From Eledone cirrhosa (taxonomy: Eukaryota): a stretch of 64,000 nucleotides of DNA. The notes below the pieces were generated by a model that ran no database searches, was not told the origin of the DNA, and was given only the letters and a program-made list of their open reading frames with translations. Each line of letters starts with the position of its first letter. The first letter of the stretch is position 1. The stretch is from NCBI GenBank assembly GCA_964016885.1, contig OZ024746.1:84506001-84570000 (forward strand). The letters are read 5' to 3'. The translations under genes were made by a program, and so were the position numbers. Of the stretch, positions 8,052 to 53,165 are shown one piece after another.

Positions 8052-8154
8052 TGCCAATCTGTCCAAAGCAGCCTGGGGTGTACTGGAGAAGGATGGTTCA
8101 CAGTTCATGATACGCTCATATGAATTAGGAGTCCTTTTCATGCCAAATGTTTTT
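8052..8154 (+). CDS. TDP1: TDP1 coding exon ([10 protein letters not shown] motif)
   Basis: Acceptor ttcaacag. Encodes [34 protein letters not shown]. Donor gtaagt at 8155; 103 nt, phase 2 to 0. Confidence 0.97.
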
Positions 8155-8191
8155 GTAAGTTTACTTACCATTATTATTTATATTTATATAA

Positions 8192-8385
8192 ATGGGTGAA
8201 GGGCGATGAATTAGCAGTATCGGTAGAGGGTTGGACGCCATGTTTTCTAGCATAGTTACGTCCCTTTACGATCTGAGTTCAAATCCCGCTGAGGTTAACT
8301 TTGCCTTTCATCCTTACGGGGTCGATAAAATAAAGTACGAGTAATGTACTGGGTAATTGCTGGCCTTGTGCCTAAAGTAGAAACA
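8192..8385 (+). mobile_element. tRNA-derived SINE, full length
   Basis: A-box-like tagcagtatcgg, B-box gagttcaaatccc, body gcctttcatccttacggggtcgataaaat, tail agaaacaatt. 19-bp TSD attatttatatttatataa at 8173-8191 and 8386-8404. Confidence 0.85.
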
Positions 8386-8404
8386 ATTATTTATATTTAT
8401 ATAA

Positions 8405-8565
8405 GGTGGTGGATTGGCGGAATCAGTAGAGCGTCAGACAACATGCTTAGCGGCAGAGAGTTACGGCCCTTTGCGTTCTGAGTTCAAATCCCACTGAGGT
8501 TAATCTTGCCTTTCATCCTTATGGGGTTGATAAAATAAAGCAGCAGTAATGCCTAAATCAGAAAC
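8405..8565 (+). mobile_element. Same SINE family, internally deleted copy
   Basis: ggtggtggattggcggaatc...gagttcaaatccc...gcctttcatcctt...gcctaaatcagaaacc. Confidence 0.8.
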
Positions 8566-8835
8566 CACACTTTGTGTTGTAATTTGTCTATATATTGTCG
8601 CCACCATCTTGGGTCCTTATGAAATTATAATTAGATAAAGAAATAATAATTATTATTATTAATCATATTTTTATTGCATGTTGTTACTGCATTACCGAGC
8701 ACAGTTACCGAGCCTTGGGTATGTGCAGTGTATTTTTTTTTTTTTTTTGTGGTGTTGTTTCTACGGTATTTAGAGTACCCTTTGTAATATGTGTCTGTGC
8801 CTCATAATGCTATTATTTTTATTATTGGATTGGCA

Positions 8836-9055
8836 AGGGTGGTAGATTGACAGAATCAATAAAGTATTGGACACCATGCTTTGCAGCATATAGTTATGGC
8901 CCTTTATGTTCTGAGTTCTAATCTCACTGAGGTCAGCTTTGCCTTTCATCCTTGTGGGGGTCAATAAAATGAAGTACCAGTAACACACTGGGGTTGATTT
9001 AATCGACTTTCCTCTCCCCCAAATTGTTGGCCTTGTGCCTAAATCAGAAACCTTT
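8836..9055 (+). mobile_element. Same SINE family, longer subfamily
   Basis: Same head and body, plus the insert ggggttgatttaatcgactt...caaatt before ggccttgtgcctaaatcagaaac. Confidence 0.8.
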
Positions 9056-9263
9056 ATTATTGTTATTATTATGGACTATTGAAGTAGAAGCCACACTTTA
9101 CATTGGCTCTATAAAGTTTGTATTATTTTTGTTTATTTTGTTGATGTGGCACCCTCTGTTGGGGTGTCGGCTTTCTTAATTTTGTTAATTTAAAAAAAAA
9201 AAATATTTATATAAATTTATATACATTGATTCTGATACCAAATGTGGAGAATGCAATGAAAGG

Positions 9264-9347
<84 letters not shown>

Positions 9348-9980
9348 TTTAACACCAACTGAAGGGAAGAGTGAGGAAGACAGTGTCTCTATAATAGAGA
9401 TGGACTCAAAAAGAAAACAAAACCATATTATTTTAATTAATGGTTTTAATTAATGGTTTTAAACATACAAAATAATATTGGAAACACATCCAACAAGAAT
9501 AACAACAATAATAGCAGCAGCAACAATAATAACAATGAAAACAACAACGATAAAAATGAAAACAACAACAAAAACAACAGCAGCGAAAATAACGATAAAA
9601 TCGAAAAAGACAATAACAAGGAAAAAAACAACAAAAACAAGTCAACCAGCAAACAATGGCAGCATTACCAAATCTTTTGCTGGTGCCATGAAAACTTCTT
9701 TTTCAAAGATCCCTTTCTCTGAAGAAGAAGTAAAACAAGCAAGACACGGCCACATTGTAAACCTCAACACCCCCAGCGAAACTATCCAAAATATGACATG
9801 TTGGACCATAACATTTTGTATTGGAATAAAAACTAGGAAGGTCGAAAGAGTGATGAGTGCTCCACTTGTTCAAACACTAGAATGGTCTTTCTATGAAAAT
9901 AATGGGCAAGTAGCTGAGCATTCCACAGACACGTGTACCCTTCACAGTGTGTGACAAGCCTGGCCCTTTGAATTACAGGT

Positions 9981-10258
9981 ATCATCATCATCACCGTTTT
10001 ATGTCTGTTCTTCTATGCTAGCATGGGTTAGATGGGTTGTCTTGTTGTGGGCAGTGTCCGGTTGGCTGACCTTGTCTTGCTCATACAGGAACTGATTCTG
10101 GCTTGATTTCTACAGCTGGATGCCCTTCCTAACACCAACCTCATTTACAGTGAGTGCTGGGTGCTTTTTTCCGTGGCGCCTACACTGTCCACTTTACAGT
10201 GTGGGCTGGGTGCTTTTTTTTTTTTTTTGCCGTGGCACCTCCACAACCACTTTGCAGT
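9981..10258 (-). mobile_element. Short copy of the RTE 3' UTR and tail (antisense to about 7105-7385)
   Basis: Near reverse-complement match to 7105-7370, including the (CAT)n/(GAT)n tail and the ORF-track twin peptide MPFLTPTSFTVSAGCFF. Confidence 0.85.
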
Positions 10259-10289
10259 GGAATGATAGGGACCCCAGTCCTATCATCTC

Positions 10290-10550
10290 ATTTCTACAGC
10301 TGAGTAAACTGGAGCAATGTGAAATAAAGTGTCTTGCTCAAGGAAACAACACATCACCCAGTCCGAGGATTGAACTCACAACCTTTCGATTGCAAGCCCA
10401 TGTGCCTTCTGGCATAATTAATTGTTTTCTACCTGAGTAAACTAGAGCAATGTGAAATAAAGTGCCTTGCTCAAGAACTCAATGCACCACTGGGAATCAA
10501 ACTCACGACCTTACGATCATGAGCCAAACACCCTAACCACTTAACCATGT
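10290..10550 (-). mobile_element. Two tandem copies of a second SINE-like family
   Basis: Repeated tgagtaaactggagcaatgtgaaataaagtgtcttgctcaagg...gattgaactc (reverse B-box). Related pieces near 3500, 18200-18310 and 19560. Confidence 0.65.
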
Positions 10551-10986
10551 AAATGGTGGTAGTATTGTCGTGAATAGGTGTTAGGCATTTACTAGAACTG
10601 ACACCTACCATCACCTATCTCCTACCCCTCATCTCCTCCATCCTCTAACACACACACACACGCACACACACTCTCACACTCTCTCACTCTCTCTCTCTCT
10701 GATTAGTTCATGTTACATGCCTTGCTGTCAGCTAATGTCACCAGGCAGTTGGCAGTAATATAGTCTTACAGTGACTGAATGACATGGTTAGTGCTAGGGA
10801 TGCTGTGTGTGCGCGTAAAGTACATGTGTTTCTATGTTTGTGCATATATACGTTTCTGTGAGTGTTTGTGTGTGTGTGTATATACATATGTATACATAAG
10901 AATGGTTTTCCAAAAAGGAATGGAAAGAGACCACAGTTAAATAAGGTACTCAATGCATAAACAGTGAAGATACAGGATTTATTCCA

Positions 10987-11088
10987 TATAGAAATGACTT
11001 CTATAGGACTAATACTGTTTCATTTGTTTGAAATTATCATAATGAGTTCAAATGAAACAGTTCTAGTTCTGTAGAAGTCAGTTCTATG
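10987..11088. repeat. Palindromic short element (same family as 39028-39140 and 2461-2498)
   Basis: atagaaatgacttctataggactaatactgtttcatttg ... caaatgaaacagttctagttctgtagaagtcagttctat. Confidence 0.75.
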
Positions 11089-11357
11089 GTTTCTACAGCT
11101 GGATGCCTGCACACACATGTTTGATGTTTATTTGTGTGTTTATTTGTTTATTTGTGCATATGTATTTGTGTCAGTCTGTGTGTGTGTAATATATATATAT
11201 CAACATCATTTAATGCCCATGGGTTAAATGGGTTGTCCCATTAGAGACAAGTTGTGTCAAGTGACCATGTCTTGCTTATATATATATATATATATATATA
11301 TATAGATATAGATAGGTAAATATACACGGGTGTGTATGATTGTGTATAGAAGATTAT

Positions 11358-11668
11358 ATTAATAAGAGGAATTCCAACTTTGTCTGATTTACTCGTTTTA
11401 TTTACAATCCTTTAAAATATATATAATGGTATTATAATGAAATAGTATGATAGAATATTAAATTCTAAGTGTTAATTGAAAATTGCAAACTCGACTGTCA
11501 CCACATATCATGAACCTGAAGATTGCGAAAGCATGAAAGTACTTGTTCAATTAACACTTAGAATTTAATATTCTATCATACTATTTCATTATAATACCAT
11601 TATATATATTTTAAAGGATTGTAAATAAAACGAGTAAATCAGACAAAGTTGGAATTCCTCTTATTAAT
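11358..11668. mobile_element. Perfect 123-bp inverted repeat with 65-bp spacer containing a hammerhead (Penelope-like/retrozyme remnant)
   Basis: Arms 11358-11480 and 11546-11668 read as exact reverse complements. Confidence 0.9.
11511..11549 (+). ncRNA. Minimal type-I hammerhead ribozyme, intact core
   Basis: TGAAC-CTGAAGA-t-TGC-GAAA-GCA-t-GAAA-G-ta-C-TT^GTTCA: 5-bp stem I, GNRA-capped stem II, palindromic AAGTACTT stem III. Confidence 0.8.
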
Positions 11669-12217
11669 CATCATCATCATCATCATCGTTTAACGTCCGT
11701 GTTCCATGCTTGCATATATATATATATTATAAATGGCTCCTCTATCAATTTCAACGAGTATTTTGGTTGTTCCATTAATGGAAATATCTATTCATTGTAG
11801 TCTCCCCACCTTTTTATTCTCACTCTCTAAAACGTTTTGCTTTGGGACAAGGCAATCTCTCTATTGCTTGTGTTACGATAATATGTACTTAGTGTATAGA
11901 GTGGTTGGCATTAGGAAGGGCATCCAGCTGTAGAAACCATGCTAAAAAAGGGTTGAAAGGACTCTTCAGTTGTGTCAAGGGCATGACAACCTCACTTACA
12001 TTGGTGCCACAATAAAATACACCCAGCATACTCTGTAAAGTGGTTTATATTAAGACGGGTATCCAGCTGTAGAAACTATGCCATAACTGGAATGTTAGTA
12101 AATAAAGCATGACCTGGATGCTGGCTTGACTATGAAGAAAGTAGCTTTGTTAAGTAGTGAATTGGTCTGTAACCTTCAGTCCAACCTATGCCAGCATGGA
12201 AAACTGGATGTAAAATA

Positions 12218-12530
12218 ATTGTTTCTACTTTTGGCACAAGGCCAGTAATTACCCAGTGCATTACTGGTACTTTTTCTTATTTAGGCACAAGGCGAACAAT
12301 TTTGGGGGAGGGGAAAGTCGATTAAATCGACCCCAGTACGTCACTGATATTTTATTTTATCGACCCTGTAAGGATGAAAAGCAAAGTTAATCTCAGTGGG
12401 ATTTGAACTTAGATCATAAAGGGCCGTAACTCTATGCTGCAGAGCATGGTGTCCGACTCTCTACCGATACTGCCAATCCACCACCCTTAGGTTAACTTTG
12501 CCTTTCATCCTTATGGGGGTCGATAAAATA
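12218..12530 (-). mobile_element. Cluster of SINE pieces (3' fragment and full minus-strand copy to about 12488, then a short plus-strand fragment)
   Basis: aattgtttctacttttggcacaagg...; aggatgaaaagcaaagtt...gggatttgaact...ccgatactgccaatccaccacc. Confidence 0.8.
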
Positions 12531-12993
12531 AGGTTGACGATTATATCATCATCAGCACCAATTAACATCCATTTATCCACGCTAGCATGGGTTAGACGAG
12601 TTGTCCTATTGTGAGAGAAGTCAGATCAGATGACCGTGTCTTGCTCATACAGAACTGTGTGTGTGTGTGTATGAATGTGTATATGTATGTATGTGTGTGT
12701 GTACGTGTATGAATGTGTATATGTATGTATGTATGTGTGTGTGTATATGTATGTATGTACATACCTATGTATGTATATCAGGCTTTCAAACAGTTTCTTT
12801 CTACCAAATTTCACTTACAAGTCTTTGATCAACTCACAGCTATGAGTACATTACAAAGCACCAGGTGCCGAACAGTGGGATCAAACATGAAACTATGTTG
12901 TTGTGAAGCAAACTTCTTACCCACCTGGTTGTATGTGTGTTTCCATGTATAAGTCCAGTTTCCAAATTAAGACCTAGCATTGCTTTCCACATC

Positions 12994-15900
12994 CTATCAC
13001 TCTTCCTACTCCTTTCTAACACTCTTCCTACCCCTTTCTAACACTCTTCCTACCCCTTTCTAACACTCTTCCTACCCCTTTCTATCACTCTTCCTACCCC
13101 TTTCTAACACTCTTCCTACCCCTTTCTAACACTCTTCCTACCCCTTTCTAACACTCTTCCTACCCCTTTCTAACACTCTTCCTACCCCTTTCTAACACTC
13201 TTCCTACCCCTTTCTAACACTCTTCCTACCCCTTTCTAACACTCTTCCTACCCCTTTCTAACACTCTTCCTACCCCTTTCTAACACTCTTCCTACCCCTT
13301 TCTAACACTCTTCCTACCCCTTTCTAACACTCTTCCTACCCCTTTCTAACACTCTTCCTACCCCTTTCTAACACTCTTCCTACCCCTTTCTAACACTCTT
13401 CCTACCCCTTTCTAACACTCTTCCTACCCCTTTCTAACACTCTTCCTACCCCTTTCTAACACTCTTCCTACCCCTTTCTAACACTCTTCCTACCCCTTTC
13501 TAACACTCTTCCTACCCCTTTCTAACACTCTTCCTACCCCTTTCTAACACTCTTCCTACTCCTTTCTAACACTCTTCCTACCCCTTTCTAACACTCTTCC
13601 TACTCCTTTCTAACACTCTTCCTACCCCTTTCTAACACTCTTCCTACCCCTTTCTAACACTCTTCCTACCCCTTTCTAACACTCTTCCTACCCCTTTCTA
13701 ACACTCTTCCTACCCCTTTCTAACACTCTTCCTACCCCTTTCTAACACTCTTCCTACCCCTTTCTAACACTCTTCCTACCCCTTTCTAACACTCTTCCTA
13801 CCCCTTTCTAACACTCTTCCTACCCCTTTCTAACACTCTTCCTACCCCTTTCTAACACTCTTCCTACCCCTTTCTAACACTCTTCCTACCCCTTTCTAAC
13901 ACTCTTCCTACTCCTTTCTAACACTCTTCCTACCCCTTTCTAACACTCTTCCTACCCCTTTCTAACACTCTTCCTACCCCTTTCTAACACTCTTCCTACC
14001 CCTTTCTATCACTCTTCCTACTCCTTTCTAACACTCTTCCTACTCCTTTCTAACACTCTTCCTACCCCTTTCTAACACTCTTCCTACCCCTTTCTAACAC
14101 TCTTCCTACCCCTTTCTAACACTCTTCCTACCCCTTTCTAACACTCTTCCTACCCCTTTCTAACACTCTTCCTACCCCTTTCTAACACTCTTCCTACTCC
14201 TTTCTAACACTCTTCCTACCCCTTTCTAACACTCTTCCTACTCCTTTCTAACACTCTTCCTACCCCTTTCTAACACTCTTCCTACCCCTTTCTAACACTC
14301 TTCCTACTCCTTTCTAACACTCTTCCTACCCCTTTCTAACACTCTTCCTACCCCTTTCTAACACTCTTCCTACTCCTTTCTAACACTCTTCCTACTCCTT
14401 TCTAACACTCTTCCTACCCCTTTCTAACACTCTTCCTACTCCTTTCTAACACTCTTCCTACCCCTTTCTAACACTCTTCCTACCCCTTTCTAACACTCTT
14501 CCTACTCCTTTCTAACACTCTTCCTACCCCTTTCTAACACTCTTCCTACTCCTTTCTAACACTCTTCCTACCCCTTTCTAACACTCTTCCTACTCCTTTC
14601 TAACACTCTTCCTACCCCTTTCTAACACTCTTCCTACTCCTTTCTAACACTCTTCCTACCCCTTTCTAACACTCTTCCTACCCCTTTCTAACACTCTTCC
14701 TACCCCTTTCTAACACTCTTCCTACTCCTTTCTAACACTCTTCCTACCCCTTTCTAACACTCTTCCTACCCCTTTCTAACACTCTTCCTACCCCTTTCTA
14801 ACACTCTTCCTACCCCTTTCTAACACTCTTCCTACTCCTTTCTAACACTCTTCCTACCCCTTTCTAACACTCTTCCTACCCCTTTCTAACACTCTTCCTA
14901 CCCCTTTCTAACACTCTTCCTACCCCTTTCTAACACTCTTCCTACTCCTTTCTAACACTCTTCCTACCCCTTTCTAACACTCTTCCTACCCCTTTCTAAC
15001 ACTCTTCCTACCCCTTTCTAACACTCTTCCTACTCCTTTCTAACACTCTTCCTACCCCTTTCTAACACTCTTCCTACCCCTTTCTAACACTCTTCCTACC
15101 CCTTTCTAACACTCTTCCTACTCCTTTCTAACACTCTTCCTACCCCTTTCTAACACTCTTCCTACTCCTTTCTAACACTCTTCCTACCCCTTTCTAACAC
15201 TCTTCCTACCCCTTTCTAACACTCTTCCTACCCCTTTCTAACACTCTTCCTACTCCTTTCTAACACTCTTCCTACCCCTTTCTAACACTCTTCCTACCCC
15301 TTTCTAACACTCTTCCTACCCCTTTCTAACACTCTTCCTACCCCTTTCTAACACTCTTCCTACCCCTTTCTAACACTCTTCCTACCCCTTTCTAACACTC
15401 TTCCTACTCCTTTCTAACACTCTTCCTACCCCTTTCTAACACTCTTCCTACCCCTTTCTAACACTCTTCCTACCCCTTTCTAACACTCTTCCTACCCCTT
15501 TCTATCACTCTTCCTACTCCTTTCTAACACTCTTCCTACTCCTTTCTAACACTCTTCCTACCCCTTTCTAACACTCTTCCTACCCCTTTCTAACACTCTT
15601 CCTACCCCTTTCTAACACTCTTCCTACCCCTTTCTAACACTCTTCCTACCCCTTTCTAACACTCTTCCTACCCCTTTCTAACACTCTTCCTACTCCTTTC
15701 TAACACTCTTCCTACCCCTTTCTAACACTCTTCCTACTCCTTTCTAACACTCTTCCTACCCCTTTCTAACACTCTTCCTACCCCTTTCTAACACTCTTCC
15801 TACTCCTTTCTAACACTCTTCCTACCCCTTTCTAACACTCTTCCTACCCCTTTCTAACACTCTTCCTACCCCTTTCTAACACTCTTCCTACTCCTTTCTA

Positions 15901-15995
15901 ACACTCTTCCTACCCCTTTCTAACACTCTTCCTACCCCTTTCTAACACTCTTCCTACCCCTTTCTAACACTCTTCCTACCCCTTTCTAACACTCT
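12994..15995. repeat. 22-bp minisatellite, about 136 copies (CTAACACTCTTCCTACCCCTTT), in the largest TDP1 intron
   Basis: Exact 22-bp period (the line pattern recurs every 660 nt). Variants CCCC/CTCC and rare CTATC. Confidence 0.98.
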
Positions 15996-16095
15996 CTTAC
16001 TCTCTAAGAATAATCTTCCCGAACTTTAGATGTTTTCAGTGCAAAAAGCTGTTCTTTTTAATTCTAGTTTATTTATTGTTACTAATAAGCAATTT

Positions 16096-17370
16096 TAACC
16101 ACCACTACCCCCACCACTACCCCTACCACTACTCCCACCACTACCCCCACCACTACCCCACCACTATCCCCACCTACATTCACACCTGTCTTTTAACCAC
16201 TCTTACACCCACTGTGTTGCACTCAGTTGTTTTCATTATCACTATCATCATCACCATCAACAACACTACTATCATTGGCATCATCATCATCATCACCACC
16301 ACCACCACCACCACCATCATCGTTACTATAACGAACACTGCAGACATCATCATCATCATCATCATCATTGCCATCATCACTACTACCATTGCTATCATCA
16401 TCATCATCATCACTAGTGCCATTTCCAACGCCATCATCACTGCTACCACTACCGTCTCCATCACCACTACCAACACCATCATCATCACCATCACTACCAC
16501 CATTACTGTCATCATTATCACCAACATCACCATCACCACGCCAACCACCATCATCATCAACATTATCATGATGTTTGTATTCAAAATCTTTTCCTTTTTT
16601 TTTTACTACTCTTCCTTTTCTTTTGTTTTTTTTTAGTAATTTTATCTTCTTCTTTCCATCTCTCTGCCCCCCCCCCTCTCTCTTGTTTTCCTTTTATTCT
16701 CTTTTCTCCCTCCCTCTTTTCTTTCTTCCTTTCGTCTTTTCCTACTCTGCTTCCTTCTTCCCACCCACCTTCCCCCTCCTCTCTTTCCTTTCTGCTTTTT
16801 TAGTCTTTAGTTCCTCCTCCATATTTATGTATCTTCATTATATATAAAGGAGTTTGTGTGCATGTGTGTGTGTGTATGTATATGTTCATATATATATATA
16901 TGTGTGTGTGTCTGTGCATCTAAAGAAGATACATTTCATGAAGCTATATATATATATATATAATGTATATATATAATGTATGTATATATATAATGTATGT
17001 GTATATATATATAATGTATGTATATATATATATATATATATAATGTATGTACATATATAATTAATGTATGTATATATATATAAATTGTGTGTATATATAT
17101 ATATATATATAATGTATATATATATATATATATAATGTATATATATATATATATATATAATGTATATATATATATATATATATATATAATGTATGTATAT
17201 ATATATAAATTGTGTGTATATATATAATGTGTGTATATATATATGTGTGTGTATATATGTGTTTATATATATATACACAATGGGTATATATATATATAAT
17301 GTGTATATATATATATAATGTATATATATATAATGTGTATATATATATATATAATGTGTATATATATATA

Positions 17371-17402
<32 letters not shown>

Positions 17403-17431
17403 ATGTGTATATATATATGTGTATATATATA

Positions 17432-17466
<35 letters not shown>

Positions 17467-17540
17467 GTGTATATATGTATATATATATATATGTGTATAT
17501 ATATAATGTGTATATATAATGTATATAGATAATGTATGTA

Positions 17541-17601
<61 letters not shown>

Positions 17602-17625
17602 ACACACAGACACACACACACAATG
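16096..17625. repeat. Low-complexity block: (CAC/CAT)n, pyrimidine tract, interrupted (TA)n
   Basis: Direct inspection. Confidence 0.9.
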
Positions 17626-18018
17626 CAAACTCACTCATAGGAAGATATATTATATGAATGTATCTTCATTAAATGTATCTTCTTTATACATACCTCATCT
17701 CTCTCATACTTTGCTATTTATTTATTCTTTGGTTTCTCTTTGCTGTGACACTTGAAGCTTAAAAGAAAAAAACTCCTCACAAACTACTAGTTTGCCATGT
17801 TAATCCTGGAGCTTAGCTCGTTAAGTGATTGGCTCTGCAGGATACTTTTATGACAGAGCTAGTATCTTCTAAGTCAGTGAAACTGGATAGCTAAATAACA
17901 CCATTTCTCACATGTCAAGCCGAGGTTTGAACCTAAATCCCTCTTCTCTACATCTTTTTTTGCCATCATGTATCTGACAAGGCCAAATAATTTTTGGCTT
18001 GTCTATAATTTTTTTTGT

Positions 18019-18068
<50 letters not shown>

Positions 18069-18927
18069 CAGTAGGCGGAGGTGGAAACGCCGAAGGTATG
18101 TTGGACACCACCGGACGACTTTTCCTGGTTACAATCCTAAGTCCATGTATCTGTCTGTGTGTGTTTGTATAAAGGCTTAGTGTTTTTTTTATTTTTAGAT
18201 CAATGGATCTGTACATTATGCCCTTGAGCAAGAAACTTCATGTTTCTCCAGTCTATCCAGCTAACAAAAATGAGTTGTACTTATAATTCGAAGGGCTAGC
18301 CTTGTCACATTTGTCTATATTTGGTGATCCATGAATTTTGTGGAACACCTGAAAAAGATTGTACATTACTTCTTCATCTTTACCCTCTTATTCCTGGGAG
18401 GGCTGAAGGGACAGAGTCCTTAAGAACGCCTTCCAACAAATTCTGTTAGAAGCAACTGTCTCCAATTGGTCCAGCTGGATCCTCTAGTGAGACTAGCTTA
18501 GCTCATTGTACACCACTTCCTTAGACTAATTAATTAAGCTAAGGGAATGTCTCACTGGTTGTTTGACCTGCTCAAAATAGCAGCCAAATCTTCTAATCCC
18601 ACCCTAAAAGAAATTGAACCAGTGAGGAAGCTTTTATGTGATCACTTGGCCTACTAGAAATAACAGCTAGTCCTCCCTCAAATCACATTTTATAGCTTGA
18701 AATGAAGGACACATTGAATAATGCCTTCCTAGTCATACTATGAATGGAATGGTCTTGAAGAAAAAGAGAGTTTAGGGTACTGAAGTAAAAAAAAAATAGC
18801 ATTAAAAAAATGAATTCAATGGTTCAAATGAGGTCAGATCCTAGAATAAATTTTTGATATAATTTTTGTTATATTTTTGATGAAATAATTACTAGTCTTT
18901 CTTGAGTTGTTGCTTTCACTTTTCCAG

Positions 18928-29906: not shown

Positions 29907-29942
29907 TCTTCTGATGAAGGATTAGTGTTCGAAACGTAAATA
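29907..29942 (+). ncRNA. Hammerhead ribozyme motif (family E)
   Basis: tctt-CTGATGA-a-ggat-tagt-gttc-GAAACGTA-aata. Flanks match 56400-56515 on the minus strand. Confidence 0.65.
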
Positions 29943-39027: not shown

Positions 39028-39140
39028 TAAATAACTTCTAAAGGACTAGAAATGTTTCATTAGTTTGAAATCAATCGGAAAGACTTTCCTGATGATTTCA
39101 AACGAATGAAACAGTTCTAGTCATGTAGAAGTAATTTCTA
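39028..39140. mobile_element. Palindrome with hammerhead core (family B)
   Basis: The + arm reads CTGATGA(39089)-t-ttc-aaac-gaa-t-GAAAC(39108)-agttctagtc. The left arm is its imperfect reverse complement. Confidence 0.65.
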
Positions 39141-39214: not shown

Positions 39215-41470
39215 AGATTGCGAAAATAGATTTGCCCAGTAAGCAAAAGATGTGTTGGGCGATTCTCGTCAGTGATTTCGCTATTTCTGTCTCGCTGCTT
39301 GTGCGTGCGCGCATGCGCATGTGTGTGCGTGTGTGCATAATTAATTTCTATAATTTACACAACTTAGCTAGTTGGTTAGAAAGACAGATAGAGTTGCCTT
39401 TTAGGTCTCTCAATTTCTTGGTTACATATTGTTCTGAACTGGATCTTACTCTCTGAACAATGCTATTATGTTGTTAGGGCGACCATATTAGAGGTAAGCC
39501 CACATGAATTTGTTTTGCTCTCAAGGGACTGCTGCCATTTTTGACACTAACGCATGCATATAAACTTCGTTTCAGAAAAGTGGAGTGTATTGCAATCTTT
39601 CAAATGACAATATGATGGATATTAACATTAAATTAGAAACTCGAAACTTGAAATCATTCATACAATAATTCTCTTGTATATATTTATTTAATTATTTATT
39701 TATCAGTCTATTTATTTGTTTCATTAGTTTGTTCTGGTGTAAGGGGTTCTGACTATGGCCTTCTCAACCCTTTCAAAACCAGTGTTGCCCTTGAACAAGT
39801 TATAGAAAAACACACACACAGAAAACAACAAAAAAAACAAACAAAAAATACAAGTTATAGAAAAACACACACAACCCCCCCCCCCCCAAAAAAAACAACA
39901 CAAAAACAAAAAACAACAAAAAAAAACAACAACAACAACAAAAGCAAAACAAATAGTACTAAGAAGGAATTCCTGATGACCAACGTTTTGGGAAGGAAAA
40001 ATTTGACGTAGTGCTTAGTGCTAAGCTTAAAGAGGCGTAGAAGCAATATAAGTGAGTCGATAGAGGCTGAAAGACAAAACCATCAGATCTGAGGGTAAAA
40101 GACCCCTGCAGTTGTAACAGAAAGACAGTGAAAGAAAATTGCACGTTTGTAGGCCAGCGGCTGGAATGTTTGTTTTCGACTTAATACTAATCTGACGAGT
40201 GGCTTTTCTTTAGATACTGTTGTGTAAGTGTAGTATTAGTACTTTCTAAATTTTGGAGCAGGATTTCATTGCGTATTCCACCCCGAGCTTTGTAGAGGGT
40301 CTGTAGGTGTTATGAGATGAAGTATTTTCTGGCTCTGAAATGGAAAGTTTTTGAGATAAAATCTTTGGTATATTATTTATAGAAGTGGGGAAGAGTGGGT
40401 TAGTGAAAAAATGAGAGCGTTTGTTAAGCTGTTACAATGTAGACACTGAATTCATAACCCTTCATATGGTGTATGTAGAACTAACGTGGAATATGAAATA
40501 TGTTTAGAGCAACGAGTCCGTTAATAATGGTAGATTGATATAAAATGCTTCGTAGCATTTATTTACGCCTCCGAATGGTGGTAAATATCAAAGTTGGTTG
40601 AGTGGCGGAAGAAATATCTTGCAGAATTTAGTGACACATATTTACTTTTAAAGTTCGCCTTCCAATTAAGTACCGAGATCGATATGATCGATAGTGCCTA
40701 AATTGTGTAGGCTTAGGGGTAATAATCATTTTCCTTCTACGTTATACGTTCTGACCTCAAATTTTATCTAGTTCAAATAAGTTTAGTTCCTGATGCACTT
40801 ACTAACAGAGGACAGCATAATAGTTTATCAAACCGACACCGTTTCTACTGGTGCGCGAGGCATGTGATCCGTGATGTAGAAGAATAAAAGGGCACCAAGG
40901 ACTGAGACATGTAGGGAAATACATATAACACTGCCGAGATAGATCATATATATATATATATATATAGATAGATAGAGAGATAGAGAGAGATCAACACAGC
41001 ATCTTGAGAGGTTACCGCTCAGCTAATTTACGACCTCAATTCTGTGGGAGATGCGTGAGTCCTGATTTCACTAATTGACACGTGGATAGCACCTTACTCC
41101 AGTAAACACGACTGCTGGGAGACCCTTTCAGGAACTCACATGTCTGCTGGACGCACGAGCAGAAGGACGTGTGTTTTTTTCCAGCCGGCAGCATATCACT
41201 AAATCGGATTTCATTTGAGGATACCGTTCTCATAGCAACAACAAATGCATGAAGGACTTCTCAATTGCATGGAGAACCGTGGAAATAATTATAATGATTA
41301 AACGATTTATGTAACATCAGCATCTTTATTTTTGTTATATATATATAAGGGCGGTGCCCCAGCATGGCCTCAGCCGGATGGCTGAAACAGGTAAAAGAGT
41401 AAAAGAGTATATATATAATATATATGTAGTGAAATTGATAAGTTATGATGTCATAGGTAGAAGATGAAAT

Positions 41471-52786: not shown

Positions 52787-53165
52787 GTACGTACGTAGAT
52801 ACATATATATACTACGTACATATATGTATTAGGCATTTTAAAGATACACGCATACATAATCACACATGCAAACACACATATATTCGACTCTGNNNNNNNN
52901 NNNNNNNNNNNNNNNNNNNNNNNNNNNNNNNNNNNNNNNNNNNNNNNNNNNNNNNNNNNNNNNNNNNNNNNNNNNNNNNNNNNNNNNNNNNNNNNNNNNN
53001 NNNNNNNNNNNNNNNNNNNNNNNNNNNNNNNNNNNNNNNNNNNNNNNNNNNNNNNNNNNNNNNNNNNNNNNNNNNNNNNNNNNNNNNNNNNNATATATAT
53101 ATATATAGTAGTATATGTATATATATATATGTATATATGTATATGTATATATATATATGTATATG

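Follow-up and report, generated by a model that had tools for sequence, protein, structure and literature searches.

TDP1 is the host gene at this locus, and the feature studied here lies in one of its introns, within a window (the whole stretch of DNA analysed) of 64,000 nucleotides (nt). One TDP1 exon at ~8052–8154 is identified on the + strand by Pfam PF06087 (E 5.9e-14), and the next, from ~18928 on the same strand, by translation only. Because these exons flank it on the + strand, the hammerhead is sense-intronic, as an earlier note on this DNA had placed it. The same intron holds a 22-nt tandem array with extreme GC skew (~12840–16000), and a 200-nt run of N occupies 52893–53092. The features of the locus are listed in Table 1.

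Table 1 Features of the TDP1-intron insertion and its surroundings (window coordinates)
Feature	Position	Strand	Remark
TDP1 host intron	8155–18927	+	Motif scan: no exon between; reading phases of flanking exons agree
(TA)n target, left side	11278–11301	.	
Element 'tail' (left arm only): ~40 nt and a further ~16 nt that extend into the (TA)n target	11302–11357	-	
Short inverted arm, element +124 down to +2 (cut: +1 at 11545)	11358–11480	-	
Junction microhomology TTGAA, 5 nt: short arm +6 to +2, long arm -69 to -65	11476–11480	.	
Long arm, near-complete pseudo-LTR, -69 to +124, without tail	11476–11668	+	193/193 nt identical to L170
Hammerhead motif, minimal type I, with its cut predicted at 11544/11545	11511–11549	+	
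Right arm of the inverted repeat, the 3′ part of the long arm	11546–11668	+	
(CAT)n adjoining the right end of the insertion	11669–11687		

The insertion is a young copy of a Penelope-like element (PLE) of the canonical EN+ type, with two 3′ ends arranged head-to-head. The perfect 123-bp inverted repeat that had been described at 11358–11668 is real, its arms being 100% complementary and separated by a 65-nt spacer, but it is only part of a larger, asymmetric insertion. The adjoining sequence at 11302–11357 is the tail of the element, so that the insertion spans ~11302–11668 and consists of a tailed short arm and a tailless long arm. On the + strand it reads as the reverse complement of the tail, a sequence that also comes after the 3′ end of many element copies; its left limit at 11302 is blurred by (TA)n, and 11290–11480 matches another copy (L171) at 99.5%. 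The proposal that the insertion is recent is upheld by the identity of its arms and by the perfect agreement of the long arm with a full-length copy (L170). Hereafter, element positions are numbered from the predicted cut, with 11545 as +1 and 11476 as -69. The reported start of the right arm at 11546 stands as an outer limit only, since 11476–11480 is common to the two arms, which allows the short one to end anywhere from +2 to +7. No target duplication was discernible in the flanks of the insertion. An older 39-nt inverted repeat (10988–11087, 87% complementary) lies 200 nt away; it resembles the sequence next to a hammerhead core-like motif at 39089 and may be the degenerate remains of an inversion from a different PLE family.

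The parent element, as represented by full-length copies, encodes a reverse transcriptase (RT) that is recognized by RVT_1 with an E value of 2.9e-06, yet at 27.6 bits, below the cut-off of 29.6; its translation contains DKG and YLDD motifs; at the C terminus a GIY-YIG endonuclease scores above the cut-off of PF01541. The linker CX4CX2C in the open reading frame (ORF) of L170 fits the Neptune pattern CX2-5CxxC, a linker type common to Nematis, and by this motif rather than by an RT tree the element is classed as Neptune/Nematis. In a second copy, L174, two hammerhead cores lie 4,208 nt apart (a tandem unit with pseudo-LTRs), accompanied by one inverted core; both hammerhead and tail reside in the pseudo-LTR. 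An upstream frame of ~450 amino acids (L170:3-1427), without a Pfam match, overlaps the start of the RT frame, possibly by frameshift or intron. Two other assignments were rejected. A non-LTR retrozyme consists of head-to-tail tandem hammerhead units in the accessible part of its description (10.64898/2026.07.22.740005), whereas our copy has a single core and head-to-head arms; a MITE or DNA transposon does not fit arms that represent an RT element's 3′ end, with differing outer ends and no target duplication seen. Elsewhere, one short hammerhead-bearing inversion (L004) lies between two RT-coding LINE-like fragments.

The hammerhead core reported earlier is intact. It agrees with the minimal type I consensus (CUGANGA...GAAA...UH, helices I and II and a palindromic helix III) in having stem I TGAAC/GTTCA, CTGAAGA, a 3-bp stem II with a GAAA loop, GAAA and a palindromic helix III, which is predicted to pair as a dimer duplex, the dimer being a predicted requirement. 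An Rfam search with the hammerhead gave no match at the gathering score, and the isolated fold is predicted to be no stabler than shuffled sequences (z = -0.15). In pattern searches of the genome, exact matches to the 31-nt core number 5,562, which is an at-least figure for the family, against 0 for the reversed control pattern, and a 25-nt anchor downstream of the core has 7,391. Opposite-strand hammerhead pairs 100–700 bp apart were known earlier (PMC4209133). A second family of hammerhead-like motifs, in which helix II is longer, is represented in the window by three copies, at 29911 (+), 28888 (-) and 56480 (-), and further core-like motifs lie at 39973 and 61305.

Perfect arms, and the fact that among the matches listed no short-read contig spans the TDP1-intron junction, are what an assembly or long-read fold-back artefact could offer in its favour. 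The outer arm ends differ, however, only one bearing a tail, as do the flanks; the 65-nt spacer is genuine element sequence, and the architecture recurs at hundreds of loci. Moreover, a sister junction type, the commonest among those in which both arms end near the cut, is also present in short-read contigs of X1 and X2 (from one sample, possibly the source of the assembly). We consider an artefact barely credible.

In TDP1 pre-mRNA the two arms would form a 123-bp duplex with a predicted energy of -183 kcal/mol. The earlier note had proposed that this hairpin sequesters stem I of the ribozyme and thereby protects the host transcript. The predicted fold does pair the 3′ strand of stem I (4/5 nt), but no protective role is needed: in the accessible text of the source papers, in vitro cleavage was absent for a lone minimal PLE hammerhead (PMC4209133) and, without the element protein, for that of an anole PLE (PMC11167929), and among 100 copies surveyed many have an intact core and no inverted arm. 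A hairpin selected or domesticated as a regulator of TDP1, silencing the ribozyme or serving as an ADAR site, could draw on the capture of stem I and on the sense-intronic position; it is nevertheless very improbable, given arms that are identical to each other and 100% identical to a mobile copy, an architecture generic to the family and the inactivity of the lone minimal hammerhead (PMC4209133). We propose that the hairpin is a by-product of insertion. Differences between short-read letters were rejected as signs of editing, as they come from piled-up paralogues. A 123-bp duplex is in itself a plausible ADAR substrate.

Family-wide, the cut is not the main 5′ boundary. Among 100 unbiased copies (those at the first 100 anchor matches out of 7,391, all on contig C1), 58 have their 5′ end at -74 to -62, 23 further upstream, 9 at -59 to -4, 4 (at 3 loci) at -3 to +3, and 6 at +4 or beyond; the Poisson p of 0.003 for the four ends at the cut is not relied on, as two of them represent one locus. 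A TATA-like motif at -104 in L170 and L174, 31 nt before -73, suggests that the main boundary, ~70 nt upstream of the cut, likely represents the start of transcription. An additional C or G, absent from the full-length copy and possibly non-templated or cap-related, is present at many of the ends at -73; the boundary is also similar to a 3′ splice site.

The TDP1-intron copy falls into a class of inversions, termed long/short, in which one arm reaches -62 and the other ends near the cut. There are 67 such junctions near the cut, against 30 and 44 in control windows, the 44 being a plain count of matches; junctions that contain fillers (gap limit 30) and long arms beyond -73 escape this search. 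Corrected for anchor conservation (84/96 and 65/96 arms), the class is ~1.7-fold commoner near the cut than in the downstream window, so some of it may stem from cut RNA. The exact junction of the TDP1-intron copy occurs at two genome sites, here and in L032, an older-subfamily copy, with L264 as a possible third instance. Among all 67, the outer limits of the short arms are scattered from +19 to -12 (2 at +2, 4 at -1, 7 at +5, 7 at +16 and 9 at -4), and 15 of the 67 pass the cut by at least 2 nt (at -2 or beyond).

According to the earlier note, the short arm copies RNA whose 5′ end was made by the ribozyme. In its full form this model makes the arm a run-off cDNA of hammerhead-cut RNA, joined through terminal overlap to the cDNA of a second, uncut RNA. 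It would account for the outer limit at +2, from which a cDNA end at +1 differs by the trimming of a 1-nt flap, and would set both halves of the overlap near cDNA ends; the independent junction in L032, the 1.7-fold excess and the apparent existence of cut templates in the family are also in its favour. Yet the long/short class has no pile-up at +1/+2 (2/67 at +2), and a microhomology of equal length (5 nt), 40 nt away at +40 to +44, is used three times among the 30 control junctions, with one further mutated case. Equal microhomology is thus used as often elsewhere, and microhomology alone suffices for the TDP1-intron junction. Independent RNAs also predict mixed cut/uncut pairs far in excess of both-cut pairs, which are not seen in such proportions. 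With a long arm that reads through the uncut ribozyme and a 5-nt microhomology at the join, a cut-RNA origin is not supported for 11302–11668 and seems to us rather unlikely; this copy probably came from uncut RNA, and its junction likely adjoins the cut site only because of the 5-base overlap.

Ribozyme-made 5′ ends find their support in a separate class, in which both arms stop near the cut (both-short) and to which the TDP1-intron locus probably does not belong. This class numbers 124 loci, against 16 in a control window 29 nt downstream searched with the same design, an excess of ~4.4-fold after anchor and non-element correction. Arm ends were examined in the first 50 of the 124 loci, 47 of which are the element. 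In 15 of these 47 the deeper arm ends at +3, in 11 at -1, in 7 at +5 and in 3 at -2, and the -1 ends, lying within a 4-nt overlap, are compatible with an end at +1. The clearest single-locus cases are L076/L077 (= L235) and L305, where both arms stop precisely at +1; one of these junctions is blunt and the other contains a 4-nt filler. A pattern search for foreign sequence just upstream found 34 matches at the cut and fewer at the control positions +74 (7) and -29 (15). By script the 34 comprise 15 inverted, 8 solo, 5 deletions, 4 mixed and 2 non-element matches. For the controls the script gives 3 and 1 solos, but inspection by eye shows two of those 3 to be internal indels, which leaves about one genuine solo per control. 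In L072, L073 and L080, the same upstream-ORF stretch is joined to +1 of the cut, in sense or antisense, which may point to ligation or to a template switch at the end of a cut RNA.

This boundary might have nothing to do with cleavage if the quasi-palindrome at +1 to +12 attracts annealing between cDNAs or stalls the RT at the 3′ edge of the ribozyme. The commonest both-short junctions indeed use overlaps of 4–6 nt within it, its self-dimer is predicted at -6.1 kcal/mol, and in the accessible text on the anole PLE no RNA-seq reads start or end at the cut and no requirement for cleavage was seen in vitro (PMC11167929). A stronger perfect palindrome, predicted at -7.6 kcal/mol, lies at -8 to -1. 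Against such a palindrome effect, the script finds no arm past -2 in any of the 47 loci (inspected by eye, L205 extends to -3), whereas 3/16 control arms run correspondingly deeper (Fisher p 0.014). A 4-nt microhomology that requires read-through is used in 0/50 loci compared with 9/50 for the 4-nt one at the cut, and a 3-nt one reaching -2 is used twice. Finally, solo copies, which gain nothing from the palindrome, keep the +1 G in 8/8 matches (6 independent loci, L069 doubtful). We regard the palindrome explanation as somewhat unlikely. The excess instead likely records occasional hammerhead cleavage in vivo, as judged from assembled junctions, and ~3–4% of the arms of the family were likely copied from hammerhead-cut RNA, both arms then stopping at +1 to +5.

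A further regularity concerns the tail. An inverted 5′-truncated copy with a tail on exactly one arm, as at 11302–11668, is found in 127/144 inversions (43/47, 58/67 and 26/30), more than the maximum of 50% that two independent choices allow. Among the long/short cases (n=97) the tail is on the short arm in 48 and on the long arm in 36. This distribution excludes simple snap-back from a tailless arm; for the TDP1-intron locus snap-back from the tailless long arm was rejected, as it cannot supply the tail. The greater number of both-short loci (124) than of long/short junctions near the cut (67) indicates that the status of the RNA, cut or uncut, is common to both arms, which could mean that one RNA was copied twice, the reading we prefer, or that two RNAs were cut together as a hammerhead dimer. 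For the anole PLE in vitro, the accessible text describes nicking and extension of both DNA strands, two adjacent RT starts that define the tail, and uncut RNA as the main substrate (PMC11167929); one-arm tails together with both-strand nicking and two RT starts fit two coordinated primings.

Our best explanation of the locus, to which we give a probability of roughly 0.7, is a head-to-head insertion by double nicking, double copying of one uncut RNA and microhomology end-joining. The element protein would nick both DNA strands at a microsatellite in the TDP1 intron, and a single uncut RNA would be copied twice from two neighbouring RT start sites, the tailed and tailless ends presumably corresponding to the two starts known from the anole PLE. 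The long arm would run through the ribozyme to the main 5′ boundary of the family (-74 to -62), taken as the transcription start, and the two cDNA ends would be joined through the 5-base overlap just inside the cut site. In ~3–4% of arms the RNA would already have been cut, both arms stopping at +1 to +5. From sequence we infer both the transcription start and the one-RNA step. LINE-1 twin priming resembles this scheme in its two primings on one RNA, its inversion and its junction microhomology; it inverts a different, upstream segment, whereas both PLE arms here copy the same 3′ segment. Extended to the whole family, the junctions would be a fossil record of in vivo cleavage, in which a single RNA serves twice as template, once per RT start site and per DNA strand, and each of the two cDNAs runs off the 5′ end of that RNA, mostly the transcription start and in ~3–4% the cut; we hold this wider reading to be slightly favoured.

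The head-to-head architecture has already been published, and the TDP1-intron locus is an ordinary one among thousands; as a single locus it has little weight, and what deserves attention is the boundary at the cut across the family. What the hammerhead does in EN+ PLEs has been described as unclear (PMC8557442), and in vivo cleavage was undetected in anole RNA-seq as far as its accessible account goes (PMC11167929). In the openly accessible literature covered by our searches, we found no report of PLE insertion ends at the hammerhead cut. If our reading is true, the boundary would be direct genomic evidence of germ-line cutting by an animal PLE hammerhead, the 3′ product being reverse-transcribed and integrated, and a single model would account for the inverted repeats of PLEs and their one-sided tails. 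Where the genome shows so sharp a boundary at the cut, assemblies alone are enough to test for in vivo cleavage, whatever the PLE family, and the one-tail rule limits the ways in which PLE inverted repeats can arise.

Known systems, as far as their accessible descriptions go, frame these results. Canonical EN+ PLE insertions have a pseudo-LTR, an adjacent inverted 5′-truncated copy and a 30–40 bp tail at one end (PMC8557442). The 11302–11668 copy shares their head-to-head arms, one-sided tail, hammerhead within the pseudo-LTR, (TA)n target and lack of a clear target duplication; there is no architectural difference, our copy being very short and without an ORF. The accessible description does not place inversion ends relative to the ribozyme cut. 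The parent ORF resembles Neptune/Nematis PLEs (PMC8557442) in its DKG motif, CX4CX2C linker, C-terminal GIY-YIG domain and (TA)n targeting, and differs in the separate, overlapping ~450-amino-acid upstream ORF. With the minimal metazoan PLE hammerheads (PMC4209133) the motif, known here from its sequence, has in common a short helix I, an unpaired base before helix II and a palindromic helix III, whereas its helix II has only 3 bp. The anole Poseidon element PAc (PMC11167929) is alike in both-strand nicking, two RT starts bounding the tail and AT-rich targets; no requirement for cleavage and no reads at the cut were found there, whereas the junctions described here suggest a minority of cut templates.
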